Part shown: positions 2,690 to 21,564 of the stretch, piece after piece | Position numbering within the stretch: the first letter of the stretch is position 1 | How the letters are laid out: each line of letters starts with the position of its first letter | Assembly (NCBI GenBank): GCA_902798685.1 | Contig: CADBXO010000010.1 | Location: forward strand, 30,877 to 94,876 | Reading direction: 5' to 3' | DNA length: 64,000 bases | From: an uncultured Bacteroidales bacterium | Lineage (GTDB): Bacteria; Bacteroidota; Bacteroidia; Bacteroidales; Bacteroidaceae | Made by a program: the position numbers and the translations under genes | The notes under the pieces: model-generated | The model's database searches: none | The model's input: only the letters and a program-made list of their open reading frames with translations | What the model was told of the DNA's origin: nothing

Positions 2690-3115
2690 ATGGCAAAGAT
2701 ATACGTAGCATCCAGCTGGAGGAACCCCTACCAGCCCGAAGTAGTAAAGAAACTCAGAGAACAAGGTCACGAAGTCTTCGACTTCCGCAATCCACCAGAT
2801 GGCAAGGGAGGATTCTTCTGGAAGGATGTAGATCCCAACTGGGAGCAATGGACGCCTCAGGACTACATCAACAAACTTGACCACGAATGGGCTCAGTACG
2901 GATTTATGCGTGACTATGACGCAATGAAAGAAGCCGATGTCTGCGTTCTGGTACTCCCCTGTGGCCGTTCAGCCCACACCGAAGCCGGATGGATGGCTGG
3001 TGCCGGGAAAAAGGTGATTGCTTACATTCCCGAAAAGCAGGATCCAGAGTTGATGTATAAGATGTTTGATTTGATTACAGACAGTTTTGAAGAAATAATC
3101 GAACACATAGGTTAG
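2690..3115 (+). CDS. Nucleoside 2-deoxyribosyltransferase-like (NDT/TIR-like Rossmannoid) small protein
   Basis: 141 aa. KIYVASSW at the N-terminus, and ADVCVLVLPCGRSAHTEAGWMAGAGKKVIAYI matches the NDT-family 'aD.vva.l...D.GT.fE.Gya.a.GkPv' block with a candidate catalytic Glu. It starts 15 nt after the AbiH stop. Confidence 0.55.
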   Translation: MAKIYVASSWRNPYQPEVVKKLREQGHEVFDFRNPPDGKGGFFWKDVDPNWEQWTPQDYINKLDHEWAQYGFMRDYDAMKEADVCVLVLPCGRSAHTEAGWMAGAGKKVIAYIPEKQDPELMYKMFDLITDSFEEIIEHIG

Positions 3116-3948: not shown

Positions 3949-5364
3949 ATGGCTTCAAACAACCATTTAAAACTGCCCTACGACATCACAAGTGCCAAGA
4001 GCATCTTTGAATACAGCAAAGGCTTGCTAGGCAGAACTCTGCGTGATTTCACATGGGAGGGTTATGAGCCTAAAACCGGCAAAGGCGGTCTTGGGCAAAT
4101 GGTTGAGAATATATATTTCCTTCTTGAAACCAACTGCTATCCCGGCGCTGATTTCACAGAGGCTGGAATGGAACTGAAGTGCACACCTCTCAAAAAAAGC
4201 AAACAAGAAGAATTACTCATAAAAGAGCGCCTTGTTTGCAACATGATTAATTATTGTGAAGTTGTAGAACAAGACTTTGAACATTCTCATTTCTATCTGA
4301 AATGTCAGTTAATGCTTTTGCTTTTCTACCTTCACCAAGCAAACTGCGACAACCTGGATCTTGAGTTTCTTTTTTCCGTTTTATGGAAACTACCAGAAAA
4401 AGATTTGCTCATTATACGCCACGATTATGATGTCATAATTGGCAAAATAAAGCAAGGAAAGGCTCACGAACTGTCCGAAGGCGACACCATGTATCTTGGC
4501 GCTTGCCGTAAAGGACAGAAAGGTGAAAGCTTGATGAAGCAGCCCAACAATGACATTGAAGCACCCCGCAGAGCATTCAGCCTAAAAATGGCGTATATGC
4601 GTACCATTCTAGAGCACGTACTCAACAGCGGGAAAAATGCAGTCTCAAATGTCGCCGGGGTGCAATCTGAGTTAGTCAGCACGAAGGCTTTACTGAAGCA
4701 CTCCTTTGATGATATTCTACTAAGCCGTTTCAAGCAGTACTTGAAGATGCCTTATAAGAGGATTGCGAAACGCAAGAAGATTGACATTTCGAACAATCCC
4801 AAGAATAAGTTCGCAATGATTGCGAATGCCATTGCTGCATCAACTAATTGCTCAAATGTAAACCGTTCAGAAGAATTCCTTAAGGCCGGATTGACCATGA
4901 AGACAATCAGAGTCCAGGCCAATGGCAACATAAAGGAATCCATGTCTTTTGAAAACATAGATTACATCGAGGTTGCCGAATGTGAGGAATGGATTGACTC
5001 AAGGTTGTACGAGTTGTATTCCAGTAGATTCATGTTTGTAGTGTTCAAGGAACAGAATCAAGGAAAAGAAGATTATGTGCTGGATGATGTGTTCTTCTGG
5101 ACCATGCCACAAAAGGATTTGAATCTGGCTGAAGAATACTGGAATCATATCAAGACCAATATACTAGAAGACCATATATCTGAGGAATACTGGTGGAAAG
5201 GTGCGGACAGAAAGAAGTTTCATGTACGCCCAAAGGCCCAGAAAGCAGTTGACCTAGCGCCCACTCCAAGTGGTAAAAGTGCAAAGAAATACTGCTACTG
5301 GTTCAACAATGATTATGTTCGTGAAATAGTTTATAACCGTAATAAAGAAATCAATAATGCCTAA
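3949..5364 (+). CDS. Sau3AI/MutH-family type II restriction endonuclease (probable GATC specificity)
   Basis: TGKGGLGQMVENIYF...PGADFTEAGMELKCTP matches the MutH/Sau3AI catalytic block. The 471-aa size fits two-domain Sau3AI. It overlaps the C5-MTase gene by 8 nt. Confidence 0.75.
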   Translation: MASNNHLKLPYDITSAKSIFEYSKGLLGRTLRDFTWEGYEPKTGKGGLGQMVENIYFLLETNCYPGADFTEAGMELKCTPLKKSKQEELLIKERLVCNMINYCEVVEQDFEHSHFYLKCQLMLLLFYLHQANCDNLDLEFLFSVLWKLPEKDLLIIRHDYDVIIGKIKQGKAHELSEGDTMYLGACRKGQKGESLMKQPNNDIEAPRRAFSLKMAYMRTILEHVLNSGKNAVSNVAGVQSELVSTKALLKHSFDDILLSRFKQYLKMPYKRIAKRKKIDISNNPKNKFAMIANAIAASTNCSNVNRSEEFLKAGLTMKTIRVQANGNIKESMSFENIDYIEVAECEEWIDSRLYELYSSRFMFVVFKEQNQGKEDYVLDDVFFWTMPQKDLNLAEEYWNHIKTNILEDHISEEYWWKGADRKKFHVRPKAQKAVDLAPTPSGKSAKKYCYWFNNDYVREIVYNRNKEINNA

Positions 5365-7087
5365 CAATCACATTAGAGTAGTAGAACTGTTTGCCGGTGT
5401 GGGCGGTTTCCGCATTGGCCTAGAGGGAGCTTCTGATGCCTATGAAACCGTATGGAACAACCAATGGGAACCCTCAACCCAACATCAAGACGCTTCGATA
5501 GTTTACAGAGCAAGGTTTACATCCAAAGGCCACTCCAACAAGGATATTAACCAGGTACAAACAAAAGACATACCTGATCATGATTTGATAGTTGGCGGAT
5601 TCCCCTGCCAAGACTATTCCGTTGCGGCAAGTTTGAGCCGTTCTGGTGGCATCGAAGGAAAGAAAGGAGTACTTTGGTGGCAGATTTACCGCATTCTGAA
5701 TGAGAAAGGCGACAAACGGCCCAAATACATATTCTTTGAGAATGTAGATCGCTTACTGAATTCTCCTGCCACCCAACGTGGACGCGATTTTGCCATTATT
5801 CTGGCATCACTTGCAGACTTGGGTTACGTAGTAGAATGGCGTATAATTAACGCGGCAGACTACGGCATGCCTCAGCGCAGACGTAGGACATACATCGTTG
5901 GTTATTTGAAGGATTCTGTGGTAGCCCAAAAGGTTGAGGGGTTAGAGGAATGGGTAAAATATGACGGCGTCCTTGCACAGGCATTTACGTTCAAACCCAA
6001 GGAAAACACAGTTTCCGAATTTGATATTAAAGGCTCCATTCCCGAAGTATCCGCAAACTTCAACAAGGAAAAGAAGGGCAGTCCTTTTGGAAATGCTGGC
6101 GTAATGAAGGAGCGCCACGTATATTCTGTTGACGCAGAGCCTGTCTATGATGGCCCAAGACAGACCTTGGGGAGTAATCTGGTGGACGAAGACTTTGTGC
6201 CTGAAGAGTTCTTCATTTCAGATAAAGATTTAACGAAATGGCAGCGTGAAAAAGGAGCAAAGAAAATAAATAGGGTTTCAAAAGAAGGATACGAATACAT
6301 CTTCTCTGAAGGTGCGATGACATTTCCTGACGATCCAGACAAGCCTTCACGCACCATGATAACAGGTGAAGGCGGATCCGCGCCTTCAAGATTTAAGCAC
6401 GTTGTAAAGACGCCTTCTGGTCGCTTTCGCCGTTTGATTCCGGTTGAGCTGGAGCGCCTGAACATGTTCCCAGACAATCACACATATCACCCTGAAGTAT
6501 CTGATGGAAGAAGAGCCTTCCTGATGGGCAACGCCTTAGTTTGCGGTGTTGTTAGGGAAATTGGAAAGAGCCTATACCGCTTCATTTTTGACGAGGCACC
6601 GGTTTCGACACACCCTATTGATGAGAAGCGCAATCCACAGCCACATCTTACCATTGATCTCTTTGACACAAACGACAAGGAACTAATTATAAATAAACCA
6701 AAGAATAAAGGCGAACTGGATGTGACCAAGAGACTTCTCATAGGTTTTGTTAAGGAGGATAATGAAAAGTACTTCCTTACTGAAGGATCTTCTAAGCTGT
6801 ACTACACTGGCAATGTTAGCAGATTCCCATCAACCATTGCACTAAACAAGCTCTATTACTTCATGCCTTACATTAAAGGGAAAGGCGTAAAAGACATCTA
6901 CCTTATAAAGATTGCCAGAATTGGCAGCAAGACTGAGGTGCATCCAGAAATAGAAGATGCCAAGGCTCCAAGACTAGTATTTGAGCTTGAGTACTTGAAG
7001 AGCTTGCCAGAATATCGGATGGTCACTCTGAATTTCCAGCATGCTTTCACTGACACATACCTTGGCAAAGTGTTGCCTGAGAAATAA
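5357..7087 (+). CDS. DNA (cytosine-5)-methyltransferase with ~150-aa C-terminal extension
   Basis: Motifs in order: I ELFAGVGGF, IV GGFPCQDYS, VI FFENVDRL, VIII PQRRRRTYIVG, X LMGNALVCGV. About 150 further residues follow motif X. Confidence 0.9.
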   Translation: MPNNHIRVVELFAGVGGFRIGLEGASDAYETVWNNQWEPSTQHQDASIVYRARFTSKGHSNKDINQVQTKDIPDHDLIVGGFPCQDYSVAASLSRSGGIEGKKGVLWWQIYRILNEKGDKRPKYIFFENVDRLLNSPATQRGRDFAIILASLADLGYVVEWRIINAADYGMPQRRRRTYIVGYLKDSVVAQKVEGLEEWVKYDGVLAQAFTFKPKENTVSEFDIKGSIPEVSANFNKEKKGSPFGNAGVMKERHVYSVDAEPVYDGPRQTLGSNLVDEDFVPEEFFISDKDLTKWQREKGAKKINRVSKEGYEYIFSEGAMTFPDDPDKPSRTMITGEGGSAPSRFKHVVKTPSGRFRRLIPVELERLNMFPDNHTYHPEVSDGRRAFLMGNALVCGVVREIGKSLYRFIFDEAPVSTHPIDEKRNPQPHLTIDLFDTNDKELIINKPKNKGELDVTKRLLIGFVKEDNEKYFLTEGSSKLYYTGNVSRFPSTIALNKLYYFMPYIKGKGVKDIYLIKIARIGSKTEVHPEIEDAKAPRLVFELEYLKSLPEYRMVTLNFQHAFTDTYLGKVLPEK

Positions 7088-7103: not shown

Positions 7104-7559
7104 GTGATTACCGAGCAACAGCGACATTACATCATGTCAAGAATCCGGGGAAAGGCAACGAAACCGGAACTTCTTGTTAGGAGCTGGCTGTGGAAGCACG
7201 GATACAGGTACAGGCTTAACGTAAACAGTGTTCCCGGTAGGCCTGACATTGTTTTAAGACGTTATCGGACTGCCATATTTGTGAACGGTTGTTTTTGGCA
7301 CGGTCATGAGGAATGCGGAAAACCTTCAATCCCCAAGAGAAACACAGAGTTCTGGGTGACTAAAATAGCACGAAACAGGGAACGAGACCAACGCAATTAC
7401 AAAGATTTACACGATGCCGGTTGGTATGTATCAGTTATATGGGAATGTCAACTAAAAAAAAATAATATCGAAGCTACGATGCGTAGTATAGAGCACGCAT
7501 TGAATACCCATCTTCTAGAAATGTATAAATGCAAAAACTACAATAATAACACGAATTAG
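7104..7559 (+). CDS. vsr: Very-short-patch repair endonuclease
   Basis: IMSRIRGKATKPELLVRSWLWKHGYRYRLN..PGRPDIVLRRYRTAIFVNGCFWHGH...NTEFW..KI..N..RD matches the Vsr blocks. GTG start as given in the ORF track. Confidence 0.85.
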   Translation: MITEQQRHYIMSRIRGKATKPELLVRSWLWKHGYRYRLNVNSVPGRPDIVLRRYRTAIFVNGCFWHGHEECGKPSIPKRNTEFWVTKIARNRERDQRNYKDLHDAGWYVSVIWECQLKKNNIEATMRSIEHALNTHLLEMYKCKNYNNNTN

Positions 7560-7898: not shown

Positions 7899-10800
7899 AT
7901 GGGGAGAAAATTATACATATACTCTGATCATAATCGATATGAGTACCGTATTGAGCATGGAGATGTACCCTTCCTGAAAATCGGTGACACTGGACAGGAA
8001 GACACAAGTGTCCGAGTGGGACAACAGGACACCACCAGTTCTAGCGAGCCTTTAGATATAAAGTATGAAATAGGATTACCCGACGGAATAAGGGACCATG
8101 ACATTCATGAGTTTTTACTCTCTAAGAATGTCCCTATTACGCGTATAGACAAAAAAAGAGAATGGTTTCAAGTTAAGTTAGAAGAGGCAATTCTTCTAAT
8201 TAACGAATTTCTTTATGGAAGCCATCGTCCAGATAGTTATGCAATGCGCGATGAGCAACAATTAGCTCATGATAAAATCGTAACCTTTTTTAATTCACAT
8301 GATTCTGAACCTAAAGCAGAGTTTTTACTTGCTGCAAAAATGCGTTTTGGTAAGAATTTCACCTTACTAAACGCAATTAAAACTCTTAAGTGTAAGATAG
8401 TATTGGTAATAACATATAAACCTTGGGTTTTTGATTCACTTGAGAAAGACATTAACAATCACGTATTATTTGAAGACTTCCAGTATGTTGATTTCCTTAA
8501 AGACAGATGCTTGTGTACATTATGTGATTCAAAAGTTAATATTATAGTTGCATCTGCTCAATTAAGTCTCAATGAGAGCAAGGACAACTCCAACAACGAA
8601 AAGGACCAAGCTGACAACATCCTCAATAAGATTCGTCAAAACTTGCAGACACTTAAGAGACTCCATTTTGATATGATTATTGTAGATGAGTACCACTACG
8701 GTACTACTACGGCCAATTTTAAATCATTATTAAATGAGCTTGATTATTCGCGACTTGTATATGTTAGTGGTACAGCTATGCGTGATATCCAATCTCATAG
8801 ATTTGATGATGATCAACTTTTTAATTGGACCTATATTGATGAGCAAATGAAACCCGGCAACGACATGCCCCGAATGAGATTATTTGCCTTGTCGCTTGAC
8901 GAATCCATTATAAAAGAAGCTCAGAAATATTATGCTGAGGATGATTATCCCAATATGACTAAATTATTTGAAGTGGATAAGAATAATGAATTTGTTCACA
9001 AGAATATGGTCAGCATGACTCTCAAACAGATATTCGGGATAGGAGGACAGCACAGACAAGCTAGCCCATTTCTAATAGATGGAATAGATACGCCCAAGCA
9101 TATATTTTGTTTGATGCCACCAAATGTTAGGTCTATACAAGCGATGTCAAATCTAATAGAAAGAGATTATGGACACCGTTTTGTAGTTATTAAAGCCAGC
9201 GGTTCCGATGGCGTGAAAACAGAGAAAGAACTTCTATCCCATATAAATAAAGCTAAAGCAGATAATAAATCCACCATTACATTATCGTGTATTCGTTTTC
9301 GTGAGGGAGTGACTATACCAGATTGGGATAGTGTAATAATGCTCGACGATGGAGAAAGCGCAGTATCCTATTTTCAAGCCATATTTAGATGCCAATCCCA
9401 AAGAAAAGAAAAACCACTAAAGCGAGAATGTTTTGTTTTTGATTATAACCCACAGCGCATGTTGATGCTGACATATCTAATGACTGAAGTTCAGAGTCTT
9501 ACTTCTAAAGATAGTCATCAACAAACTGCCAAACGATTCCTGGACTGCGCACCAATGGTAGGTTATGACGCACAAAATAAATTATACAACGTTGATATAG
9601 ATTATTTGCTTTCTTCATTCTTTATAGGGAATAAAGTAATTGGCAAAGGCTTCCGTTCATTTGATCAAGAAAGGAATTTCAACCTCGAAGCACTTAATAA
9701 TATTGACAAGGCATATATTAAATTGCTCCCACAGATAAAAAATGGTAAGCATAAAACTATTATTGAAGTAGTAAGCGATAACCGTATAGGTGGAGGAAAA
9801 ATCACAAAAGGAAGGAAAGTTAAGAAAAGTGGCAGGAAGGCTAAACAAAACGAAATAGAGAGTTTAAAACAATCATTGAGATACATCTCAAGTCGTTTAC
9901 CAGAGTACATGTTTAACACTATCGAGAACGAGCATTCGTTACAAGATATCCTTGATACTGAAACTAAAGCTAGCTATTCTTTTTTTCGAGACCTTTGTCT
10001 AACAGATCTAGAAGTATTTAAGCAATTGATCAAAGACCAAATCCTCGACGAACGTCTTATGAACCGACTTATTAGCAACTATAAGATGGAGGAGGATAGT
10101 TTTTGGAAGAATCGCACCCCAGAAGGATATGATTATATGAGTAAGAAATACTTCATTGACAGTGAAGAAGAAATTAAAACTCCTATCGTATTAGCCAGAC
10201 TCATGTTAGATATGTTACCTGATGACATATGGTCTAACCCAGAAATATCCTTCTGTGATATGGCATGTAAAGACCCATCGTTTTTACTTGTAATCAAATA
10301 TCGTTTAATGGAAGGATTAAAAAGCACTATTCCTGATGATGAGACGCGTGAACAGCATATCCTAAAGAACATGCTCTATGGCCTGTGTCGTACTAAAACT
10401 CAGCAGAACTTCATATGCCGCGTTTTAAAAATGGGAAAACACAGTAAACACATTATTTTTTGCAATAATAATATCCAAGATTTTTTAAAACATACTGTAG
10501 ATATGCCTAAGTTTGACATAGTAGTTATGAATCCGCCATACAAAAAAGGAATACACCTTGGCTTCCTTCAGCAGGCTATAAACATTGGTAAGAAGATTAT
10601 TCTTAGCATACAACCGGCACAATGGTTAATGAGCGAGAAAGATATGCTAAGAATGCGTAGTGGAAAAACACAAGAATTTTGCACTGAATATTTAAACAGG
10701 CATGGTGCTAATATTAAATTAGTAGATGGCCAGAGATTCTTTGATGCTGAAATAGCTTCATACCTAGGTATATTTTATTTTGATAAAGAAAAGACACAAA

Positions 10801-11381
10801 GGATTACGATTGAGGATGCTTCAGGTTTAGTTGCGGAATATGACAATGTGTCTAGCGTTTCTAAATACGGAAATGCGCCTATCTACCTTGGATTGAAAAA
10901 GAAGATATTAGAAGCTGCAGACAAAGACAACCTGCATACACATGTCAGAGTTACCTCAAAGTTTCTAGCTAATAAGACTTTCCCATTTGAGGACCATCCA
11001 AAAGAAAAATACTTTGTAAGAATAGCAAGAATTAGAGGGCATGTGGCAAAAAATGGCTATCAAGATGACTTCTATACTATTATACCTGATGACAGAGGAG
11101 TGGACACCGATGTTAATGATGCTACTATGTATTTCAGTTTTAATAACAAGCAAAATGCTTTGAATTTTATTACTTATCTAAAAACAGATTTTGCCCGATT
11201 TGCATTATCAATGTATAAATTAAACACATCACTAGACACTGGTGAATTGTATGCAATTCCATGGCTCGATTTTTCAAAAGTATGGGACGACAATAAACTT
11301 GAAAAACTATTTTCCATCACTAGCGAAGAAAGGTCTTTTATTAGAGCACATATCCCTGATTTCTATGGAATACGCAAGTAA
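7899..11381 (+). CDS. T5orf172(GIY-YIG-like)-SF2 helicase-N6-adenine DNA methyltransferase-TRD fusion protein
   Basis: aa 5-100: LYIYSD..FLKIGDT..VRVGQQ..HEFL..REWFQV, T5orf172-like. aa 145-300: AAKMRFGKNFT (Walker A-like with GKN), IIVDEYHYG (motif II) and VSGTAMRD (motif III). aa 760-885: TPIVLARLML (X), FCDMACKDPSFLL (degenerate I) and DIVVMNPPYKKG (IV, nt 10530-10541). The C-terminus is a TaqI/Eco57I-like TRD ending in LFSITSEERSFI. Confidence 0.7.
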   Translation: MGRKLYIYSDHNRYEYRIEHGDVPFLKIGDTGQEDTSVRVGQQDTTSSSEPLDIKYEIGLPDGIRDHDIHEFLLSKNVPITRIDKKREWFQVKLEEAILLINEFLYGSHRPDSYAMRDEQQLAHDKIVTFFNSHDSEPKAEFLLAAKMRFGKNFTLLNAIKTLKCKIVLVITYKPWVFDSLEKDINNHVLFEDFQYVDFLKDRCLCTLCDSKVNIIVASAQLSLNESKDNSNNEKDQADNILNKIRQNLQTLKRLHFDMIIVDEYHYGTTTANFKSLLNELDYSRLVYVSGTAMRDIQSHRFDDDQLFNWTYIDEQMKPGNDMPRMRLFALSLDESIIKEAQKYYAEDDYPNMTKLFEVDKNNEFVHKNMVSMTLKQIFGIGGQHRQASPFLIDGIDTPKHIFCLMPPNVRSIQAMSNLIERDYGHRFVVIKASGSDGVKTEKELLSHINKAKADNKSTITLSCIRFREGVTIPDWDSVIMLDDGESAVSYFQAIFRCQSQRKEKPLKRECFVFDYNPQRMLMLTYLMTEVQSLTSKDSHQQTAKRFLDCAPMVGYDAQNKLYNVDIDYLLSSFFIGNKVIGKGFRSFDQERNFNLEALNNIDKAYIKLLPQIKNGKHKTIIEVVSDNRIGGGKITKGRKVKKSGRKAKQNEIESLKQSLRYISSRLPEYMFNTIENEHSLQDILDTETKASYSFFRDLCLTDLEVFKQLIKDQILDERLMNRLISNYKMEEDSFWKNRTPEGYDYMSKKYFIDSEEEIKTPIVLARLMLDMLPDDIWSNPEISFCDMACKDPSFLLVIKYRLMEGLKSTIPDDETREQHILKNMLYGLCRTKTQQNFICRVLKMGKHSKHIIFCNNNIQDFLKHTVDMPKFDIVVMNPPYKKGIHLGFLQQAINIGKKIILSIQPAQWLMSEKDMLRMRSGKTQEFCTEYLNRHGANIKLVDGQRFFDAEIASYLGIFYFDKEKTQRITIEDASGLVAEYDNVSSVSKYGNAPIYLGLKKKILEAADKDNLHTHVRVTSKFLANKTFPFEDHPKEKYFVRIARIRGHVAKNGYQDDFYTIIPDDRGVDTDVNDATMYFSFNNKQNALNFITYLKTDFARFALSMYKLNTSLDTGELYAIPWLDFSKVWDDNKLEKLFSITSEERSFIRAHIPDFYGIRK

Positions 11382-11793
11382 AATAGATCGAAGTAAAAGA
11401 CGCAAGCAGACTGGAGAAGATTTTACTCCCCGTGAGCTTGTAGATTATATGCTTGACAAATTACCAACAGAAGAATTCTCAAAGAATAGTAATTTTTTGG
11501 ATCCTTGTGCTGGGAATGGCAATATTATTATTCCTATCATTGAACGCAAATTGTTAGGAGGGTTGACGTATATTGAGGCTCTAGAGACTACATATGCTTT
11601 AGAACTGATGCCAGATAATGTAGAAGAAATGAAAGAGCGAATTCGTTTGCTAATAACAGAAAAGTGCGATGACGTTGACATGGAGATTGTTGAACGTATT
11701 ATTCAACATAACATTGCTTGTGGAGACGCATTTAAATGGAACTTTGACAAATGGAAATCAACAGATAACAAACAACTAGAATTATTCGATTAG
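11365..11793 (+). CDS. Half-size methyltransferase-like protein (motifs X, I, II, III only; no NPPY)
   Basis: MEYASK... has TGEDFTPRELVDYML (X), FLDPCAGNGNII (canonical motif I), ALELMPDN (II) and NIACGDAFKW (III), then ends 17 aa later. Its ATG lies 17 nt inside the end of the upstream ORF. A terminator follows directly. Confidence 0.55.
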   Translation: MEYASKIDRSKRRKQTGEDFTPRELVDYMLDKLPTEEFSKNSNFLDPCAGNGNIIIPIIERKLLGGLTYIEALETTYALELMPDNVEEMKERIRLLITEKCDDVDMEIVERIIQHNIACGDAFKWNFDKWKSTDNKQLELFD

Positions 11794-12009: not shown

Positions 12010-12017
12010 TACATTTG
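12010..12017 (+). promoter_or_regulatory. -7 box TACATTTG
   Basis: Exact TAnnTTTG 53 nt upstream of the 12070 ATG. Confidence 0.45.
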
Positions 12018-12069: not shown

Positions 12070-13602
12070 ATGGAGTTTTCATTAAAAGACAACAACTATA
12101 TGGCTCCTTTTATGGGAGAGAAAAAACTGCCAAGTTTTGGACTAAACCCTTTAGGCATTAGAACAGCCTCCGAGCAACTTTTTACCACCCTCTTACCTGG
12201 ACTTAACGTCGTTACATTAAGAGTAAGATATTACAGTTTTTATTGTTGGCTACTAAAAAACTTTTATGAGCCTAGGACAGATGCCCATCTTTATGACTTT
12301 AAAAAGCACATCAGAACCTCAGAGTTATTAATGGCATTAATTCATGCTAATAGTAATACTCCTAAAGGGATACCGGGTATAACAAGAGCAAATGAGATAA
12401 TAAACAGAAATGGAGAAAATATTTTCTTTTTAGATGACGCAATGCCCGATGGCAAAGCCACCGGAGGATATTGGAAAGGAACCAATGGCGCCTTGGGAAC
12501 ATATTATGCTGCTTCAATGCAAGAAATCGGTCTTATTCTTCCATTAACAAAGAACAATAAATTCTACAATGTAACACCCTATACTGATTCGTACATCTCT
12601 GGAGAACAACTGGCGGATGCTTTTGAAAATACAATAGGTAAAGATTTGTCATCTTCATTCCGAGAATGTGCCCAAACCTGCGCTGTAACGAAATCCCAGC
12701 TCGTAGAAATGGAAACCAAGTTTCAGACTCATATAATGCCTAATAATGAAGAACGCCGAATCCTTCTAAACATGTTGCTTCAAAAAGACACACCAAGAAG
12801 CGACACAGAAAGTTATATGCGACGAGATACATTATGCTTTCTGTTGAACTATATTCAAGACAATGATTATCAACCCTTCACAGAGTTAGGTTTTGCCAAA
12901 TACATGTACGAAAGCTACAAGAAAAATAGATTTAGCAATATTACAGCTCTTGGATGGTACGACTATTACTTAAACGATAATAGACAATTTGAAGCTCTCA
13001 ACCTATTTGATGAAGTATTGGAGAGATTGATTAATAGTCAAAGACCTGGCAAATGGGAAGAAATTGAAGACTTCTCAAACAAACTGGCATATGAAACATG
13101 TTCAGATTTTGGAAACCCACATGAAAAATTATCCTCATTATTCTCCCGTTGGGAAACAATTTCGACCGCCAATCTCACTAATACTATATCCAAAGCATTT
13201 TATAGATTCTTTGACGACTACGTTAGAAATGAAGGATACGAAAAATGCAAAGAAGAAATCAAAAGAAAGTTTTGGAGTGTTCGCAATGATGCCATAGATT
13301 TTTTTGACTCGATAAAAAAATGCTTGGATTACACATTGGTTGATTATATCAAACAATTCCTGAAACAAAATATCATATACGGACACTATGGAGAGGCTAT
13401 GAGAAAATATGCTCAGAACGGCGTACCAACACATAAATTATTGATTGAAGATGGTTATGTCAAAGGTCTTGAAAGATATGGCTCATCACATAGTTCTCCA
13501 CGTGTTGAAACATTATACACCTTTGCTACAGATCTTGGAATAATAGATAATAATCAGCTAACTAATGATGGCAAAGAACTCTTAAAGATGATAGCAATAT
13601 GA
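12070..13602 (+). CDS. Unknown 510-aa protein, partner of the PLD-motif protein
   Basis: Long uninterrupted ORF in an AT-rich region. Its stop overlaps the next ATG (ATGA at 13599-13602). I recognise no catalytic motif. The N-terminal block is GLNPLGIRTASEQLFTTLLPGLNVVTLRVRYYSFYCW. Confidence 0.7.
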   Translation: MEFSLKDNNYMAPFMGEKKLPSFGLNPLGIRTASEQLFTTLLPGLNVVTLRVRYYSFYCWLLKNFYEPRTDAHLYDFKKHIRTSELLMALIHANSNTPKGIPGITRANEIINRNGENIFFLDDAMPDGKATGGYWKGTNGALGTYYAASMQEIGLILPLTKNNKFYNVTPYTDSYISGEQLADAFENTIGKDLSSSFRECAQTCAVTKSQLVEMETKFQTHIMPNNEERRILLNMLLQKDTPRSDTESYMRRDTLCFLLNYIQDNDYQPFTELGFAKYMYESYKKNRFSNITALGWYDYYLNDNRQFEALNLFDEVLERLINSQRPGKWEEIEDFSNKLAYETCSDFGNPHEKLSSLFSRWETISTANLTNTISKAFYRFFDDYVRNEGYEKCKEEIKRKFWSVRNDAIDFFDSIKKCLDYTLVDYIKQFLKQNIIYGHYGEAMRKYAQNGVPTHKLLIEDGYVKGLERYGSSHSSPRVETLYTFATDLGIIDNNQLTNDGKELLKMIAI

Positions 13603-16109
13603 TTGAAAGAAACAACATTATAAACTTATTGTCAAAAAGAGTAAATGTATATCATTCAGCCATTTTGACTTGTTACAACTTTGATTCTGTTTTCTTTGAA
13701 TCTGTTTACTTGCCCAAATTACGAAAAATAGGAGTTGTAAATATAATTGTTGTCATGGATGCTGGCATTTATGATTCCATGCTTAACGATATAAACTACA
13801 AATATCACCCAGTTGGAGGAGCAGATTATACACTTTTAAGAAAGGCAAATAATCATTTTGGTGTATTTCACTCCAAAATAACAATGCTCTTCGGTAAGGA
13901 AGAAGGCATATTAATTGCCGGATCTGGAAACATTACATTTAGTGGATTATCGCAGAACGAAGAGATTTGGAACGCATTTCACATAAAGGGTAACGAATCT
14001 CCTTTCTATCCTCTATATTATAATGCATGGAAATACATTAAAGGTATCCTACATAATATTCCATTTCTTGCAAGAAAACAGATTGATTGGATAGAGGAAA
14101 ATAGCGAATGGATAGTCAAGAAAACAGACAACCTGCCAGTAGTTTTAAAAAACGGAGAGTCATTATGGTTGCTCTACAACGATACATCAAATAAGATATT
14201 TGATTCATTGGTTTCTATCATAAATAAAAACACAGTTAAGGAGATAACTGCTATTGCACCTTTTTATGACAATAAAGGAGAGGCTATCACCGCATTAAAA
14301 AAAGCTTTTAACCCATCTTCATTTCGTTGCATACTAGATAAAGAAAGACACAGTGCTCCATCCTTATTATTTGATAAAGAATATGGTTTTTCTTTTTATG
14401 AATACCTTAACAAAAGCCATTTACTTCATGCTAAATTATTTGAATTCAAAACAGATAGCGGAACTTGGATAATGAGTGGCAGCGCTAATGCCAGTGGTTT
14501 AGCTTTTGGAACTAATAGTAATAGATATAACGATGAATTATGCATTCTTATTCATAACCCCAAGAATATTGATTATATAAATGAGCTTGAGTTGATTAGT
14601 AACATCAACCAAATTAAAAATGAAGAATTAAGAAAATTCGAAGCATTAAATCCTAATAAGAAAGAAACAAGTGAAAGAGAAGTTTACATAAACTATTCTG
14701 AATATGATGAAACTGGGCTCCACATCTCATTCTCAGAAGAAGGTCACAAAGGTTCGTTATTAGTTTTGGATAAGCAAGCTAACGTTCGCTTTAAAACTGA
14801 TATAACGACTATATATACCATCAACGTTAACATCCCCGATGAAATAGAAGGCGTCATAAACTTCGTAGTACTTCAAAAAGATGGAGTGGACATCTCAAAT
14901 CGTAGTCTGGTAATAAGAGAAAACCAAGTTGAGAAACAGAATCCTGATTCCAAACATCGAGAATTAACAAAACTATTAACAGAAGAAGGACTATTTGAAA
15001 ATTTAGACAACATATTAAAATTCATTAGTTTCGAGGAGAAGAATGAGATAAATGTATCATCTGGAGGGATTAGCACAAATAAACAAAATGAGAATGATGA
15101 TGGCCCTTCAATTCAAAAAGAAGACTTTTATGCTTTAAAAGACAAAACAAAGCAAAGTATTAGTTCAAAGCCTAATGTGCAAATTCTAGATTATATATCA
15201 TTATACTTATTTAAAGTGCAGACAGAAGCTATAGGCAATGATCAAAACCAAAGATTAGAAGAAGCCAATCCGGAGGATGACTCATCATATGATGAACAAG
15301 TTGTCGATTATAACTTAGCTCAAAAAAGCGAAGACATCATTCTTAGATATCTAAAAAGGATGAATAAGTTTTATGTCAAAAAGATCAAACAAACTGACGA
15401 AAGTTGCGCTATAGCTGGCGAAGTGGATCACCTTCATATTTTTACGGACAAACCGGATATCAATGCATTCTGCTCTTTAGCTATTGCATGTAAAATGGTG
15501 TCATATATGGTGAGCACCAATGGCGCATTGATGACGAAAAAGGATAAAATTAAAACATTATTATTAGAAAACTCGACTTTATTCTTCGCTATTTATTATA
15601 ACCATTTTCCATCTGAGAACACGAATGAAGACAAGAAAAGCAGGATAATACTAACAGAAGCAATAGCACAATTAATGGCCGCTCTTTCATCTTTTTACTT
15701 TTACAAGGAAGAAAACGATCTAATTCTTTCTCTGTTGAATTGTTTTGATTATTGCGGCAAAACATCCACTCAATTATTAAATGATAGTTTTAATCAGTAT
15801 TGTTCTTTGATAAACGAAATGGATACAGTCAAGGATTCTACTGTATCTTTAATCAAAAAAATATATAGCGTATATTCTAGCAAAACTGACAATCCTTTAA
15901 TAAACTTCTCCATTTATATGGATACAATATTCATTCGGAGAAACAAGTATGGTTTCTTATTAGCAAAGGTTAAACACGATAATAACGTCGAATCAAACAT
16001 CTGGAAATACACTTATCATCATCCAAGAATGAAATATATAACTCCCAAAATATACTACGGGGTAAGCAAAAAATCATTTATAGGATACCGATCAGAAGTA
16101 TTCCATTAA
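13599..16109 (+). CDS. Phospholipase-D-superfamily (two HKD motifs) protein with ~500-aa C-terminal region
   Basis: HKD-1 is FHSKITMLFGKEEGILIAGSGNITFSGL (aa 90-116, from nt ~13866). HKD-2 is LHAKLFEFKTDSGTWIMSGSANASGL (aa 276-301, from nt ~14424). Both fit H.K....x(n)GS.N. An acidic low-complexity linker and a helical C-terminal part follow. Confidence 0.75.
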   Translation: MIERNNIINLLSKRVNVYHSAILTCYNFDSVFFESVYLPKLRKIGVVNIIVVMDAGIYDSMLNDINYKYHPVGGADYTLLRKANNHFGVFHSKITMLFGKEEGILIAGSGNITFSGLSQNEEIWNAFHIKGNESPFYPLYYNAWKYIKGILHNIPFLARKQIDWIEENSEWIVKKTDNLPVVLKNGESLWLLYNDTSNKIFDSLVSIINKNTVKEITAIAPFYDNKGEAITALKKAFNPSSFRCILDKERHSAPSLLFDKEYGFSFYEYLNKSHLLHAKLFEFKTDSGTWIMSGSANASGLAFGTNSNRYNDELCILIHNPKNIDYINELELISNINQIKNEELRKFEALNPNKKETSEREVYINYSEYDETGLHISFSEEGHKGSLLVLDKQANVRFKTDITTIYTINVNIPDEIEGVINFVVLQKDGVDISNRSLVIRENQVEKQNPDSKHRELTKLLTEEGLFENLDNILKFISFEEKNEINVSSGGISTNKQNENDDGPSIQKEDFYALKDKTKQSISSKPNVQILDYISLYLFKVQTEAIGNDQNQRLEEANPEDDSSYDEQVVDYNLAQKSEDIILRYLKRMNKFYVKKIKQTDESCAIAGEVDHLHIFTDKPDINAFCSLAIACKMVSYMVSTNGALMTKKDKIKTLLLENSTLFFAIYYNHFPSENTNEDKKSRIILTEAIAQLMAALSSFYFYKEENDLILSLLNCFDYCGKTSTQLLNDSFNQYCSLINEMDTVKDSTVSLIKKIYSVYSSKTDNPLINFSIYMDTIFIRRNKYGFLLAKVKHDNNVESNIWKYTYHHPRMKYITPKIYYGVSKKSFIGYRSEVFH

Positions 16110-16124
16110 TATTACGAGTCTTAT

Positions 16125-16164
16125 AAAGCCGCCGTTGAACATTGTTTTAACGACGGCTTTTATG
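16125..16164 (+). terminator. Intrinsic terminator after the PLD gene
   Basis: AAAGCCGCCGTT-loop-AACGACGGCTTT (11/12 bp) followed by T residues. Confidence 0.65.
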
Positions 16165-16217: not shown

Positions 16218-16225
16218 TATCTTTG
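16218..16225 (+). promoter_or_regulatory. -7 box TATCTTTG
   Basis: Exact TAnnTTTG upstream of the 16311 ORF. Confidence 0.4.
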
Positions 16226-16310: not shown

Positions 16311-16877
16311 ATGACAACAAAAAGAAAAGAGGTCAAAAAAACTCAAGAGAAGGAGAATTACTCCCAAGACCAATGCCCCGTATTGAATACCCTGGCTCAA
16401 CAAAGAATGAAATGCCAGGACCCGGACACTAAAAAGTCTCCACAAGAAGTTTTAGAAGAAGAACAGGAGAAATATGAGGATCAGGTTCAAGGATTTATGG
16501 GAGACCAATCCGGTCTTTTCTCCTCAGTTGGCAGAAGTCTCATTTTTGGAATAATTGGTACTATCTGGGTAATCACTTACGTAGATGGCAAGTTGAATAT
16601 TCCAAACAAATGGCTTCTTTACTCTTTAATAATAAGTCTATTTTACCTGTTAGCTGATGTATGCCATTATTTCTCGGATACAATTAGTTATCAGAAAGAA
16701 TCCAAAAAGATTTTGACTTACAATACAATTCCAGAATTAAAGATAAAACTCAGGGAAGGACTGACTAAGGTTAACAGAAGAAGTGTCACCTTCGTCATAA
16801 TAAAATTTGTAATTCTATTTGTAACTGCAATCGTATTTGGAGTAGGACTCTTCTTTAAAATTAAACTAAATCATTAA
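16311..16877 (+). CDS. Membrane protein, unknown function (acidic N-terminus, about 3 TM helices)
   Basis: 188-aa ORF with hydrophobic segments LIFGIIGTIWVITYV, LLYSLIISLFYLLADV and FVIIKFVILFVTAIVFGVGLFF. Confidence 0.5.
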   Translation: MTTKRKEVKKTQEKENYSQDQCPVLNTLAQQRMKCQDPDTKKSPQEVLEEEQEKYEDQVQGFMGDQSGLFSSVGRSLIFGIIGTIWVITYVDGKLNIPNKWLLYSLIISLFYLLADVCHYFSDTISYQKESKKILTYNTIPELKIKLREGLTKVNRRSVTFVIIKFVILFVTAIVFGVGLFFKIKLNH

Positions 16878-17435: not shown

Positions 17436-17897
17436 ATGAAAAGGATTCTTACATTTCTCAAAGGACATATTAGTGAGGCTGTAATTAATGCAAGGCTCTG
17501 GGAAATAGACAATGTTTTCCAAACAAATGACTGTTTTGATGATGTTCCTAATCAACCCGGAATATATATTCTGGCAGCAAGAAAAACCATGTTCCAATAC
17601 CCTAAAGGCCCGTCAAATGGACTGTCTCCAATTCTTTATATTGGCACGTCTAATCATTTAAAGACAAGGCTTAAACAGCATCTCAAATTATATAAAGAAG
17701 CCAAAGAAGACTTTAATAAATGCACTAAATGGATGTATAGCAGATACAACTATATTGTTGCTTTTGGAGCAGACTTATATTATTTGAGAGTAACCGGATG
17801 TGAAAAAGAAAAAGACTTGGAAAGCAAGGCTATTGAAAGTTTCTATGATACATATGGTGCTCTCCCAGTAGGAAATGGTGCTAACTCTTACCGATAA
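17436..17897 (+). CDS. GIY-YIG nuclease-domain protein
   Basis: PGIYILAA ... ILYIGTSNHLKTRLKQH ... E ... N. These are the GIY, YIG and Arg elements in canonical spacing. Confidence 0.65.
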   Translation: MKRILTFLKGHISEAVINARLWEIDNVFQTNDCFDDVPNQPGIYILAARKTMFQYPKGPSNGLSPILYIGTSNHLKTRLKQHLKLYKEAKEDFNKCTKWMYSRYNYIVAFGADLYYLRVTGCEKEKDLESKAIESFYDTYGALPVGNGANSYR

Positions 17898-17914: not shown

Positions 17915-18589
17915 ATGGAGAAAGAAAAACTAATAGATGACATCAATACAAAAGGAAGTAATAGTCTTATTTCCATTTGGTACAACATAGGAAGAGCACT
18001 ACCTTTCAGAGCACAAAGATTCCCAGATGGAAGAGTTTCTGACTGGTATAGAAATCAGTTTGTTGAAGTACATAGTGTTAAACCCGGCGGCAAGGGTGGC
18101 ATATATGGACACGCCTATGGTTTTTACTTCAGAAATGGAGTTAGAGCTAATGCCTCTGACCGTGAAAGCAGTTGGTGTAAGATAGATGATACTGAACCCA
18201 AAGAAATACCATGCGGGGCTTGTGGTTCTTGGGTTCTGTTAGATATTCTTGGCGAACCGACGCAGGAGCATACAAAGGTCTATGGATTAAATGACACCTT
18301 GGATTTTGGTAAGCACAAAGGAAAAACGCTGCAAGAGATAATCCGTGATGATTTCCAGTGGATAAAATGGGCACTTGATAATTCTGATCATTTTCATTGT
18401 GATATTGATGCCGTCATAGAAGAGCGGAACAAAACCATAAAAAGATACTATCCTGATGATGTTATTACTTTTGGAAAGTACAATGGACAAACCATCAGAT
18501 ACATCTATGAGAATGACATCAACTATCTACGATGGCTGATGGATAAGGCTGAGGATTTTATTATTGATATTTCAGAGCTGAGAAAATAG
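17915..18589 (+). CDS. Hypothetical protein with two DUF3820-like (FGKxKGxT...W) C-terminal repeats
   Basis: LDFGKHKGKTLQEIIRDDFQWIKWAL and ITFGKYNGQTIRYIYENDINYLRWLM are two copies of the motif. Confidence 0.5.
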   Translation: MEKEKLIDDINTKGSNSLISIWYNIGRALPFRAQRFPDGRVSDWYRNQFVEVHSVKPGGKGGIYGHAYGFYFRNGVRANASDRESSWCKIDDTEPKEIPCGACGSWVLLDILGEPTQEHTKVYGLNDTLDFGKHKGKTLQEIIRDDFQWIKWALDNSDHFHCDIDAVIEERNKTIKRYYPDDVITFGKYNGQTIRYIYENDINYLRWLMDKAEDFIIDISELRK

Positions 18590-19594: not shown

Positions 19595-20221
19595 ATGAAT
19601 GATCTAGAACCAATTAAGCGCAAAATCTATGAGATTAGAGGGTACAAGGTTATGTTAGATTCTGACCTTGCTGAATTGTACAATGTTGAAACCAAGAACC
19701 TAAAAAGAGCTGTCAGGGCAAACATTGAGCGTTTTCCAGACGATTTTATGTTTGAACTCACAAAAGAGGAGTATGATTCTTTAAGGTGCAAAAATTTCAC
19801 CTTAAAGAGTGAAGAGAATGAAAATGCTTTGAGGTGCAAAAATTTCACCTCAAACAGCGGACGCGGTAAACACAGCAAATATCCTCCTTTTGCATTTACG
19901 CGCGAAGGCATCGCTATGTTATCAGGACTTCTAAGGTCTGAGATTGCTGTCAAAGCAAATATCAATATTATGCGTGCTTTCTTCCAAATGCAGGAAGCAT
20001 TGCAAATAGTTGGTAATACTCAACTGCAAATAGAACAGATCAGATCTGAGATAATGCAACTAAGGGTTGATTTGAACGACATCTTAGCTGACCAAAATGA
20101 CATCAACGAAACAACACGTGCTCAACTTGACGCCATAAGTTCTGCATTAGCTGAATTACAAAGCGATAGGGCCAGGCACACTGGGTGCAACCCTATAGGA
20201 TTCAATGTCCCCAAACAGTGA
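19595..20221 (+). CDS. ORF6N-domain (KilA-N-related) DNA-binding protein
   Basis: IYEIRGYKVMLDSDLAELYNVETKNLKRAVRANIERFPDDFMFELTKEE ... GRGKHSKYPPFAFTREGIAMLSGLL is the ORF6N family pattern. Confidence 0.8.
   Translation: MNDLEPIKRKIYEIRGYKVMLDSDLAELYNVETKNLKRAVRANIERFPDDFMFELTKEEYDSLRCKNFTLKSEENENALRCKNFTSNSGRGKHSKYPPFAFTREGIAMLSGLLRSEIAVKANINIMRAFFQMQEALQIVGNTQLQIEQIRSEIMQLRVDLNDILADQNDINETTRAQLDAISSALAELQSDRARHTGCNPIGFNVPKQ
19780..19854 (+). repeat. Two in-frame 27-nt hairpin units inside the ORF6N CDS
   Basis: TTTAAGGTG-CAAAAATTT-CACCTTAAA (19780-19806) and TTTGAGGTG-CAAAAATTT-CACCTCAAA (19828-19854). The 9-bp stems differ by one compensatory A:T to G:C change. Each encodes LRCKNFT. Confidence 0.85.
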
Positions 20222-20345: not shown

Positions 20346-20391
20346 TTGTTTTTGATATCATGATGTATAACCTAATTAATACTTGTTTGTT

Positions 20392-21564
20392 ATGACATTG
20401 AAAGACATTCTTAGTCCTAAGTACAATGATGCTGTCCATCAGATTAAGGCAGCTATTTTGCAGAGTCAGTCTAAGGCTCTTGCTAGTGTTAACCAGGAGC
20501 AGCTTGCTCTTTACTATGGTATCGGCCGGTATATATCCTATAATACCAGAAAGGGGTATTGGGGTAAAGATGCTATTTCTACTATTAGTAAGCAGTTGTC
20601 AATTGCGATGCCTGGGCTTAAAGGTTTCTCTTCTAGTAATCTGAAAAACATGAGACTTTTCTATGAGCAATGGAAATGTTTGGACACCAATTCGTCAGTC
20701 GCAACTGATGAATTGCAAAAAAGTGTAAATTCGCCAGTCGCGACTGGCGAATTGCGAAAAAGTGTAAATTCGCCAGACGCGTCTGGCGAATTAGGCTCAA
20801 ACATCATTACAGCGAACATTCATCATTTAGATATACCCATAGCTGCCTTTTTTAGCATCAGTTTCTCTCACCATATTTTGATACTATCAAAAACCAACTC
20901 TATCCAGGAACGTTATTACTATGTACAATTATGCGCTGACTTAAAATTGAGTCATGAAAAACTGACACGCATAATAGCAGAGGATGCATACCACAATCAA
21001 GGAAAGATGCCAAACAATTTCAGTGCAGCTATTCCTGATGACAAACAAGCGTTCAAAGCCATACAAATGTTCAAGGACGAGTATCTGCTTGACTTTATCA
21101 ATGTTGAACAATTAGGGCAACGTGAAGAGGATATTGATGAACGTGTGATAGAAAATGAGATTGTACACAATATCAGGAATTTCATAATGACTTTTGGTAA
21201 GGGTTTTGCGTATATCGGAAACCAAGTTCATTATGATAAACTTGGGCATGACAGTTGGATTGATTTGCTGTTCTTTAATAGGATTCTTAGGTCACTTGTT
21301 GTGGTTGAACTTAAAAAAGGATCTTTCAAGCCAGGTTATTTGGGACAACTCTCCCACTATCTTCACATCCTTGATGATGATGAGAGGATTGAAGGTGAGA
21401 ACCCACCGTTAGGCATTATTTTGTGCAAAGATGCCGATAAGACTTTTGTGGAATATGTCCTTCAAGATTACCAGCGCCCAATGGGAGTTGCCACTTATAG
21501 AGCTAATCAGGAAAAGCTCAAGCAACTGCTTCCGGATGAGGAAGAAATGAAGAAGTTGCTGTAG
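20392..21564 (+). CDS. DUF1016 / YhcG-family PD-(D/E)XK nuclease-domain protein
   Basis: N-terminal YhcG-like part (LALYYGIGRYI...NLKNMRLFYEQW...SHHILILSK...ERYYYVQL). The C-terminal part, IDLLFFNRILRSLVVVELKKGSFKPGYLGQLSHYLHILDD, is the PD-(D/E)XK core. I prefer the ATG at 20392 to the TTG at 20383. Confidence 0.8.
   Translation: MTLKDILSPKYNDAVHQIKAAILQSQSKALASVNQEQLALYYGIGRYISYNTRKGYWGKDAISTISKQLSIAMPGLKGFSSSNLKNMRLFYEQWKCLDTNSSVATDELQKSVNSPVATGELRKSVNSPDASGELGSNIITANIHHLDIPIAAFFSISFSHHILILSKTNSIQERYYYVQLCADLKLSHEKLTRIIAEDAYHNQGKMPNNFSAAIPDDKQAFKAIQMFKDEYLLDFINVEQLGQREEDIDERVIENEIVHNIRNFIMTFGKGFAYIGNQVHYDKLGHDSWIDLLFFNRILRSLVVVELKKGSFKPGYLGQLSHYLHILDDDERIEGENPPLGIILCKDADKTFVEYVLQDYQRPMGVATYRANQEKLKQLLPDEEEMKKLL
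20689..20792 (+). repeat. Three in-frame 39-nt tandem units, each carrying a 26-bp palindrome
   Basis: Units start at 20689, 20728 and 20767. Unit 2 (AATTCGCCAGTCGCGACTGGCGAATT) and unit 3 (AATTCGCCAGACGCGTCTGGCGAATT) are perfect palindromes. They differ at the symmetric positions 11 and 16. Confidence 0.9.

Follow-up and report, generated by a model that had tools for sequence, protein, structure and literature searches.

A widespread two-gene phospholipase D-like module in a Bacteroidales defence island, with remote similarity to the Azaca proteins ZacA and ZacB

The window considered here is a stretch of 64,000 nucleotides from an uncultured Bacteroidales bacterium (contig CADBXO010000010.1, positions 30,877 to 94,876), and the subject of this work is a pair of forward-strand genes occupying its positions 12070–16109. 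Only two long open reading frames (ORFs) are present in this interval: ORF1 (12070..13602), encoding a protein of 510 amino acids (aa), the A subunit, and ORF2 (13599..16109), encoding the 836-aa B subunit. The stop codon of the first overlaps the start codon of the second in the tetranucleotide ATGA (13599..13602, forward strand), which is an arrangement of translational coupling. The pair is a real, widespread and so far uncharacterised two-gene module with a phospholipase D (PLD) protein as its second member, and no description of it was found in the searchable literature or in PADLOC v2.

Putative expression signals were registered on both sides of the pair. The element TACATTTG (12010..12017, forward strand), which lies 53 nt 5′ of the ORF1 ATG, is its candidate Bacteroidota −7 promoter element. 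Such elements are expected just 5′ of genes, and the TAnnTTTG pattern fits: many of its copies stand immediately 5′ of forward-strand genes, the window-wide count (51 versus 45.7 expected) showing no enrichment. A sigma-70 promoter scan of the window was uninformative, its model being unsuited to Bacteroidota. Downstream of ORF2, folding predicts on the forward strand (~16127..16164) a terminator-like hairpin AAAGCCGCCGTTGAA...TTAACGACGGCTTTT with a T tract, in which a 15-bp stem is followed by TTTTAT; its energy is −19.2 kcal/mol (z = −3.4), and only one of 200 shuffled sequences folds equally well. A simple terminator scan did not have this hairpin among its results, and a search for repeats or invertible-promoter features around the pair returned chance-level matches only. 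Database gene calls begin ORF1 at M11, giving a 500-aa product, but homologues conserve residues upstream of M11 and position 12070 therefore appears the likelier start. The first-pass annotation of this DNA had described the overlap, a promoter box and a terminator belonging to the pair itself; all three are present, and the self-contained, translationally coupled unit that it deduced is borne out by the overlap together with the conservation of the gene junction in other genomes. Just past the terminator lies a 188-aa ORF (16311–16877) that has a TATCTTTG box to itself at 16218; its product, when inspected by eye, shows two or three hydrophobic helices. Other loci do not conserve this ORF beside the pair.

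The N-terminal part of ORF2 (13599..14633, aa 1–345, forward strand) is recognised by Pfam and Foldseek as a two-lobed PLD catalytic module contained in a single chain. The Pfam family PLDc_2 is matched above threshold (39.7 bits versus 27) in two stretches, and it is matched by all members of the ORF2 family that were aligned (43 homologues from several phyla). Invariant among them are H91, K93, G108-S109-G110-N111, N120 and E122 in the first lobe, and H277, K279, G294-S295, N297 and E313 in the second. These columns hold two HxK...GSxN motifs, one at 13869..13931 (H91, K93, S109 and N111, then E122) and the other at 14427..14489 (H277, K279, S295 and N297, then E313), both on the forward strand. 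They are the two HKD-type motifs pointed out in the first-pass annotation, which had also seen correctly that the Asp of each is replaced: the textbook position K+5 is occupied by F98 in the first motif and by K284 in the second. This replacement is not a mark of inactivity, because the His, Lys and Ser/Asn residues and the downstream glutamates E122 and E313 are all invariant; judged by the alignment, each lobe of ORF2 has all the catalytic residues of the PLD superfamily. The spacing from Lys to Asn is 18 residues, which presumably matches that of human Tdp1 (H263, K265 and N283).

The rest of ORF2 is less familiar. AlphaFold2 predicts a small all-beta domain (14676..14933, aa 360–445) with a predicted local distance difference test score (pLDDT) of ~90, to which no family is assigned, and conserved motifs SN (433–434) and NPD (448–450) follow it. 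The acidic linker announced by the first-pass annotation was found at aa 481–570, with an isoelectric point of 4.3; as a feature it extends over 15042..15305 (aa 482–569), is poorly conserved and is predicted to be disordered (pLDDT <50). The chain is closed by a helical domain with a small C-terminal beta unit (15306..16106, aa 570–836) that belongs to no known family and differs between phyla; these features are all on the forward strand. The C-terminal half gave no recurrent Pfam match among the 43 members and no match to Protein Data Bank (PDB) sequences, and the profile of the whole ORF2 family returned nothing useful from PDB sequences either.

In structural comparison by Foldseek the N-terminal module resembled Tdp1, PssA and a Streptomyces PLD with E ~2e-9 and template modelling (TM) scores on the target of 0.45–0.52. 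The top match was E. coli phosphatidylserine synthase (8yr5, E 1.8e-9), and one could suppose from this, and from the listing of the Streptomyces enzyme, that ORF2 is a lipid-directed PLD whose target is the membrane, be it as a metabolic enzyme or as an effector that damages membranes. We find this hardly credible. A fold match of this kind is common to the whole PLD superfamily, and the resemblance to PssA is confined to the fold; a search of ORF2 for a transmembrane segment, an amphipathic anchor or a Walker A motif found none of them; and no lipid-synthase family appeared in Pfam among the 43 members or in NCBIfam. The first-pass annotation had allowed that homologues of ORF2 might turn out to be cardiolipin or phosphatidylserine synthases in a conserved metabolic neighbourhood. 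Both the Pfam results and the locus contexts speak otherwise: the neighbourhood is variable and made up of defence or mobile-element genes. The secondary Pfam matches of the ORF2 family, taken at the level of sequence, are to families of DNA-acting enzymes, namely RE_NgoFVII (15 of the 43 members, best E 1e-4) and Tyr-DNA_phospho PF06087 (14 of 43, best E 5.8e-6), the latter being also a precomputed match for the proteins P0139 and P0148.

The product of ORF1 is conserved over its whole length among homologues. Its AlphaFold2 model is confident (pLDDT 87, predicted TM score 0.85) and mostly alpha-helical, with two or three helix-plus-hairpin units. Foldseek gave no match for this fold in the PDB (best E 0.08, TM 0.11) or in BFVD, no family was assigned by Pfam or NCBIfam, the family profile found nothing useful among PDB sequences, and neither a Walker A or other NTPase motif nor a transmembrane segment was detected. 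A confidently predicted fold with no structural relative makes ORF1 a good target for structure determination. In divergent relatives winged-helix Pfam families are matched weakly but recurrently, first of all HTH_45 (10 of 92, best E 2.3e-6), with further weak matches to DUF4364 and wHTH-PRTase_assc. The N-terminal block that had looked conserved in the first reading of the locus is indeed where conservation within a large family peaks (aa 24–60); the consensus of the block reads G(L/R)(N/D)PLG...LLPG(L)(N/T)N(V/L)TxR(I)RYY(S/G)FYCW...FIRR(A/S)E...(I)PG. The block as a whole (12151..12402, aa 28–111, forward strand), in which GLNPLG...LLPGxNxVTxRxRYYSFYCW...RxSE...IPG is conserved, has remote similarity to ZacA and, below threshold, to DUF6361. 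With E<=1e-3 as the cut-off, profile search returned 1,571 representative clusters (50% identity), of which 859 reach E<=1e-10, with members mostly of 500–540 aa, and the family is common in gut and oral Bacteroidales, in Flavobacteriia and on proteobacterial plasmids.

Pairing of the two genes was estimated in a genome scan with one genome per GTDB species, which located ORF1 relatives at 62 loci, nearly all of them in Bacteroidota. Of these loci, 60 extend far enough downstream to be judged, and at 58 the ORF1-like gene is immediately followed by a gene of the ORF2 family (three of these 58 ORF2-like genes run off the contig end); the co-occurrence in other genomes proposed beforehand as a check is thereby seen. 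At nearly all loci the two genes overlap or are separated by a gap of 3 nt or less. In the two unpaired loci (L062 and L075) the ORF1 copy is truncated or aberrant, and ORF2 is missing too. Spread beyond Bacteroidota was followed by tblastn against plasmids and then by checks with hidden Markov models (HMMs). Plasmid-borne pairs were registered in Myroides and Prevotella, in the Alpha- and Betaproteobacteria, to which the proteobacterial range extends (Roseovarius, Polaromonas, Sphingobium, Sphingopyxis, Undibacterium and Roseomonas), in the Actinomycetota, with Streptomyces, M. avium and Miltoncostaea, and in the haloarchaeon Halorussus. The Miltoncostaea pair is assigned by gene sizes and annotation alone, and the A gene of M. 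avium was matched by no HMM. Many of the carrier plasmids are conjugative or mobilizable. Among phages, INPHARED gave no match to the pair and IMG/VR a single contig. Where these proteins are named in existing annotations at all, they are called hypothetical or "phospholipase D-like".

Two plasmid loci deviate from this picture. On the Novosphingobium plasmid pLA4 (L087, 7004–10854) the gene order is reversed, the PLD gene preceding an ORF1-like gene. The product of the latter lacks a Walker A motif, and its annotation as "septum formation inhibitor-activating ATPase" looks mistaken. In Rhizobium phaseoli plasmids (L083, 9001–9114) all that is left of the ORF1 N-terminal motif is a stretch of 38 residues; the DNA there contains no ORF of 150 aa or more, and this is probably a decayed copy.

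Among named immune systems the closest comparison is Azaca, reportedly due to Millman et al. (2022). It consists of ZacA (DUF6361), the PLD nuclease ZacB and the SNF2-class helicase ZacC (bioRxiv 10.1101/2024.10.26.620412; PMC10925250). In PADLOC, ZacA was the sole recurrent model for the ORF1 family, matching 27 of 27 proteins in the Bacteroidales set and 65 of 92 in the divergent set (best E 6.2e-9). ZacB was the top model for the ORF2 family, matching all 43 members (best E 5.2e-16) and followed by DrmC with 33 and PDC-M27B with 22. The likeness extends to the gene order, an A protein followed by a PLD protein, and to the setting in defence islands. The differences are equally clear: the conserved unit of the pair has no helicase, and neither of its proteins has a Walker A motif; ORF1 has 510 aa against ~396 of the ZacA model; and ORF2 has 836 aa against ~586 of the ZacB model, with the beta domain, the acidic linker and the helical domain as additions. 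No ZacC-type helicase was found as part of the conserved pair, no helicase is kept across the 61 loci whose surroundings were compared, and the 1160-aa helicase fusion encoded upstream of the pair in the window did not match the PADLOC ZacC model. A profile of the ORF1 N-terminal domain aimed at DUF6361/ZacA proteins returned only short fragments of the ORF1 family. Judging from these likenesses and differences, we regard the pair as a helicase-less remote relative of the Azaca A–B core and do not file it as Azaca. The first-pass annotation had held that PLD effectors are not paired with a protein like ORF1, and in this it overlooked the combination of ZacA/DUF6361 with the PLD protein ZacB. 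Its further statement that no named system matches the pair stands as far as a PADLOC v2 model or a paper is concerned, but has to give way to the remote ZacA/ZacB kinship that PADLOC finds.

ORF2 can also be compared with other enzymes built on the PLD core. In PLD-type restriction and defence nucleases each chain has a single HKD motif and the active enzyme is a dimer; in ORF2 the two lobes are united in one chain. Nuc, BfiI, NgoFVII/NgoAVII, SauUSI, END nucleases and DrmC share with it a PLD core that they use against DNA, and the RE_NgoFVII and DrmC models are secondary matches of the ORF2 family. The logic of such nucleases is modular, an N-terminal PLD part being combined with a specificity module that is C-terminal or supplied by a partner (PMC12191111). 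Endonucleases of the BfiI/NgoFVII type combine a single HKD domain with a C-terminal B3-like DNA-binding domain and have a cognate methylase; ORF2 has two motifs per chain and no methylase conserved with it, and the RE_NgoFVII matches are weak. Unlike DISARM, in which DrmA, DrmB and a methylase accompany the PLD protein, the pair has no conserved DrmA/DrmB-like neighbours in clustering of flanking genes, and the DrmC matches, 33 of 43, are secondary. Tdp1 and other single-chain two-lobed PLD enzymes are alike in having two HxK...N motifs per chain without the Asp. This likeness underlies another explanation, in which the pair has no part in defence: ORF2 would be a Tdp1-like remover of covalent protein–DNA adducts, left for instance by relaxases or topoisomerases, that serves mobile elements with ORF1 as its DNA-binding partner. 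The Foldseek matches to Tdp1 (E ~2e-9) are as good as any, the Tyr-DNA_phospho matches and the HKN-type motif point in the same direction, if weakly, and the frequency of the pair on conjugative or mobilizable plasmids would suit such a function. On the other hand, identity to Tdp1 is 13–16%, and ORF2 differs by its prokaryotic partner protein and its 490-residue extension. Most loci have defence genes as neighbours and not transfer or repair genes, the ZacB and DrmC models outscore all else in PADLOC, and a scattered occurrence in islands, as seen here, is the usual pattern for immunity genes, which makes adduct removal a very doubtful explanation.

A search of plasmids with the PLD module of ORF2 brought to light three-gene operons on Vibrio nigripulchritudo and Rhodoferax plasmids, in which genes for an A protein (~460 aa), a PLD protein (~650 aa) and a DEAD/DEAH helicase (880–1250 aa) follow one another. 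A metagenome scan gave 58 loci with a relative of this A gene, and the operon family (L091, 5383–11429; L093, 6974–12952; L094–L149) occurs on about 50 metagenome contigs besides the plasmids. Given enough downstream DNA, the PLD and helicase genes follow A in the same order, the exceptions being L105, where the only helicase match is upstream on the other strand, and L141, where ~1.7 kb separate a truncated A gene from the PLD gene. As in the pair, the upstream A gene overlaps the PLD gene. The product of the latter is a homologue of ORF2: for the PLD core hhalign gives 98.7% and E 1.8e-16, and a single-sequence alignment reaches into the beta domain. They differ from the pair in the helicase gene that follows and in the A protein, whose similarity to ORF1 is marginal (hhalign P 0.016; HMMER at chance level by a shuffled control), the resemblance being one of motifs only. 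The three-gene family was accordingly not used as evidence for the link between ORF1 and ZacA; it could represent Azaca proper or a different relative. What it shows is that PLD subunits like ORF2 occur in operons with a helicase gene as well as in operons lacking one.

Based on these data one can assume, with a probability of roughly 0.55, that the pair is a two-subunit DNA-targeting defence module derived from the same stock as the ZacA–ZacB core and devoid of a dedicated helicase. This reading is favoured because the pairing is strict, the pair is carried by mobile elements and islands, the catalytic residues are complete and the two proteins resemble ZacA and ZacB at the level of HMMs. There is also a precedent: purified BmAzaca of Bacillus cleaves T4 DNA, and mutations in the conserved nuclease active site abolish the cleavage (bioRxiv 10.1101/2025.07.10.664194). 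Enzymes of the PLD superfamily work through a phospho-histidine intermediate and independently of metals. ORF2 would then be the effector, a single-chain, two-lobed phosphodiesterase that cuts DNA through a covalent phospho-histidine intermediate and needs no metal ions. ORF1, produced in fixed proportion to it through translational coupling, may act as a sensor or scaffold: it would bind ORF2, probably through the non-catalytic C-terminal half of the latter, supply DNA binding or target discrimination by means of its winged-helix-like modules and basic conserved residues, and thereby license ORF2 to cleave invading DNA. Complex formation, DNA as the substrate, the trigger and the protective phenotype are what we infer in this scheme.

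Several observations weigh against it. The defence role is deduced from genomic context and remote homology. The match of ORF1 to ZacA is confined to ~85 N-terminal residues (about positions 34–115 of the 396 in the model), Pfam DUF6361 is reached only below threshold (6 of 27 and 6 of 92 proteins, best E 0.0032, gathering score 25 bits), and the similarity of ORF2 to ZacB is mostly that of the generic PLD core. The AlphaFold2 model of ORF2 has a pLDDT of 73.5, that is, moderate confidence only, and its C-terminal 490 residues have no assignable function. In vitro cleavage by BmAzaca requires all three proteins together with the Walker A motif of ZacC, and mutation of conserved ZacA residues had no effect (bioRxiv 10.1101/2025.07.10.664194). 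Because BmAzaca needs ZacC, a helicase-less version may be inactive alone or may work differently.

The order of an upstream regulator and a downstream effector, together with translational coupling, also calls to mind abortive infection or a toxin–antitoxin-like device, where ORF1 would restrain ORF2 until infection frees an indiscriminate nuclease that attacks host and phage DNA alike. Carriage on plasmids would suit a role in addiction, and the two loci with degraded ORF1 (L062 and L075) have lost ORF2 as well. This is nevertheless improbable: with 510 aa conserved over the full length, ORF1 exceeds what a simple antitoxin needs, and BmAzaca, far from cutting indiscriminately, prefers a certain substrate, T4 DNA (10.1101/2025.07.10.664194).

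The pair is set, in the window, in a block of low GC content. Over 1–22 kb the GC fraction is 0.32–0.44, compared with 0.50–0.57 elsewhere, and the AT-rich island with defence genes around it that had been suspected from the first reading is thus confirmed: the block is a defence island. It begins with AbiH (1424–2674) and a nucleoside 2-deoxyribosyltransferase-like gene (2690–3115) and continues with a MutH-like endonuclease (3949–5364), a Dcm-type methylase (5357–7087) and Vsr (7104–7559). The stretch upstream of the pair (7899–11793) encodes a 1160-aa fusion protein, in which a weakly matched T5orf172 N-terminus is combined with a ResIII helicase and an N6-methylase of the Eco57I type (NPPY). 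The fusion has no relative among PDB sequences; an ORF of 142–183 aa that overlaps it and looks like an N-terminal methylase fragment comes next. Beyond the pair there are genes for a GIY-YIG protein (17436–17897), an ExoX-C-like protein (17915–18589), an ORF6N protein (19595–20221) and a YhcG nuclease (20383–21564). No tRNA genes were found in the 64-kb window. A second low-GC patch (~37–44 kb, GC 0.36–0.42) contains a 1702-aa ORF on the reverse strand (36771–41879), around which, at 37–42 kb, the GC skew is strongly negative. Its product matches teneurin-like (YD-repeat) proteins weakly, and the locus may be one of polymorphic toxins.

In other genomes the strongest recurrent neighbour of the pair is type I restriction–modification (R-M), with HsdR within 6 kb in 19 of the 61 loci. 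The order hsdM-hsdS-A-B-hsdR is found in L039 (3324–15476), in L044 (4909–15498) and on the Myroides plasmid, and here, between hsdS and hsdR, the stop codon of ORF2 lies against the start of hsdR or overlaps it. The order hsdMSR-A-B is found in L015 (237–11982), L018, L040, L055 and L071; in L079 (5107–15335) the pair is likewise embedded in a type I R-M operon, and in other type I loci it comes after hsdR-YgjP or Fic. The T5orf172–ResIII–methylase fusion precedes the pair not only in the window but also in Bacteroides faecalis (L019) and in a metagenome-assembled genome of Flavobacteriales (L050), while in M. avium the pair itself precedes a methylase and a BPTD_3080 endonuclease. A helicase gene of some kind is near the pair in 28 of the 61 loci. 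Since Azaca requires its SNF2 helicase, such contexts admit the explanation that the pair serves as an accessory to restriction systems that contain a helicase. It might borrow a neighbouring superfamily 2 (SF2) motor, HsdR or the upstream T5orf172–ResIII–methylase standing in for ZacC, or it might be a guard set off by a block of the R-M enzyme, comparable to PrrC in type Ic hsd loci. The frequent location inside the R-M operon, at varied positions, agrees with either version.

We consider the accessory role rather unlikely. No helicase was detected near the pair in the remaining 33 of the 61 loci, and clear stand-alone insertions exist: in L010–13 the pair and a small T5orf172 gene are inserted among polyketide-type biosynthetic genes with no helicase nearby, and the Roseomonas, Streptomyces and Undibacterium plasmids likewise carry stand-alone insertions. 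The helicases that do occur belong to several classes with no relation to one another (HsdR of two types, SF1-DUF2726, ResIII–methylase), and clustering in defence islands fits the data as well as functional coupling does. Type I operons are, besides, known hosts of unrelated cargo genes, PrrC and RloC being restriction-linked examples. The pair resembles such cargo in lying between or after hsd genes in many lineages, and differs from it in that the proteins are unrelated and most pair loci are outside hsd operons.

Further neighbours across the loci, apart from type I R-M, are SIR2, Qat, AbiEii, WYL and integrases; flanks as variable as these are what one expects of a mobile cassette. In Roseomonas, for example, the pair adjoins QatABCD. 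A small T5orf172/MUG113 gene is situated 6–78 nt upstream of the pair in L010 (7716–8390), L021 (177–854), L027 (7343–7993) and L031 (7249–7896), the T5orf172 domain also heads the upstream helicase–methylase fusions at three further loci, and in the Roseovarius and Sphingobium plasmids the pair is flanked by GIY-YIG genes. T5orf172/GIY-YIG was considered as a third core component and rejected, being present in 7 loci only. In oral Prevotella the pair is preceded by a large methylase/HATPase system and a DUF6155 gene and followed by a SIR2 gene, and the Prevotella plasmid has a similar order. The upstream gene codes for a 172-aa DUF6155 protein in L004–L009 (7958–13645) and for a 192-aa unnamed protein in L080 (7398–13527), and downstream of the pair these loci have a gene of ~220 aa, annotated on the plasmid as a C39 peptidase, and the SIR2 gene. 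The pair may here, in Prevotella of mouth and rumen, belong to a composite locus of larger extent.

The pair is not categorically new, because both of its proteins have remote relatives in a named system and its class of effector is familiar. A bolder view, which we hold only tentatively, is that it constitutes a widespread two-gene immune system of several bacterial phyla and at least one archaeon, being either a motor-less branch of Azaca in which ORF1, with its novel fold, recognises foreign (e.g. modified) DNA directly in place of ATP-driven translocation, or a module plugged into type I restriction enzymes, with HsdR as its motor or with itself as a guard against anti-restriction proteins. 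If the connection to type I enzymes is true, it would be a new case of an effector embedded in a classical R-M system and functionally wired to it; the recurrent embedding of the pair in type I operons provides a testable case of cooperation between a restriction enzyme and a cargo effector. The size and multi-phylum spread of the family, the ORF1 fold without a relative, the lack of a motor and the repeated embedding make the pair worth an experiment. If it protects cells, a large unannotated family (~1,570 clusters at 50% identity) would join the catalogue of prokaryotic immunity, and the question posed by Azaca, what ZacA does and why a helicase is needed, would be sharpened by a related A–B core that persists without a motor.

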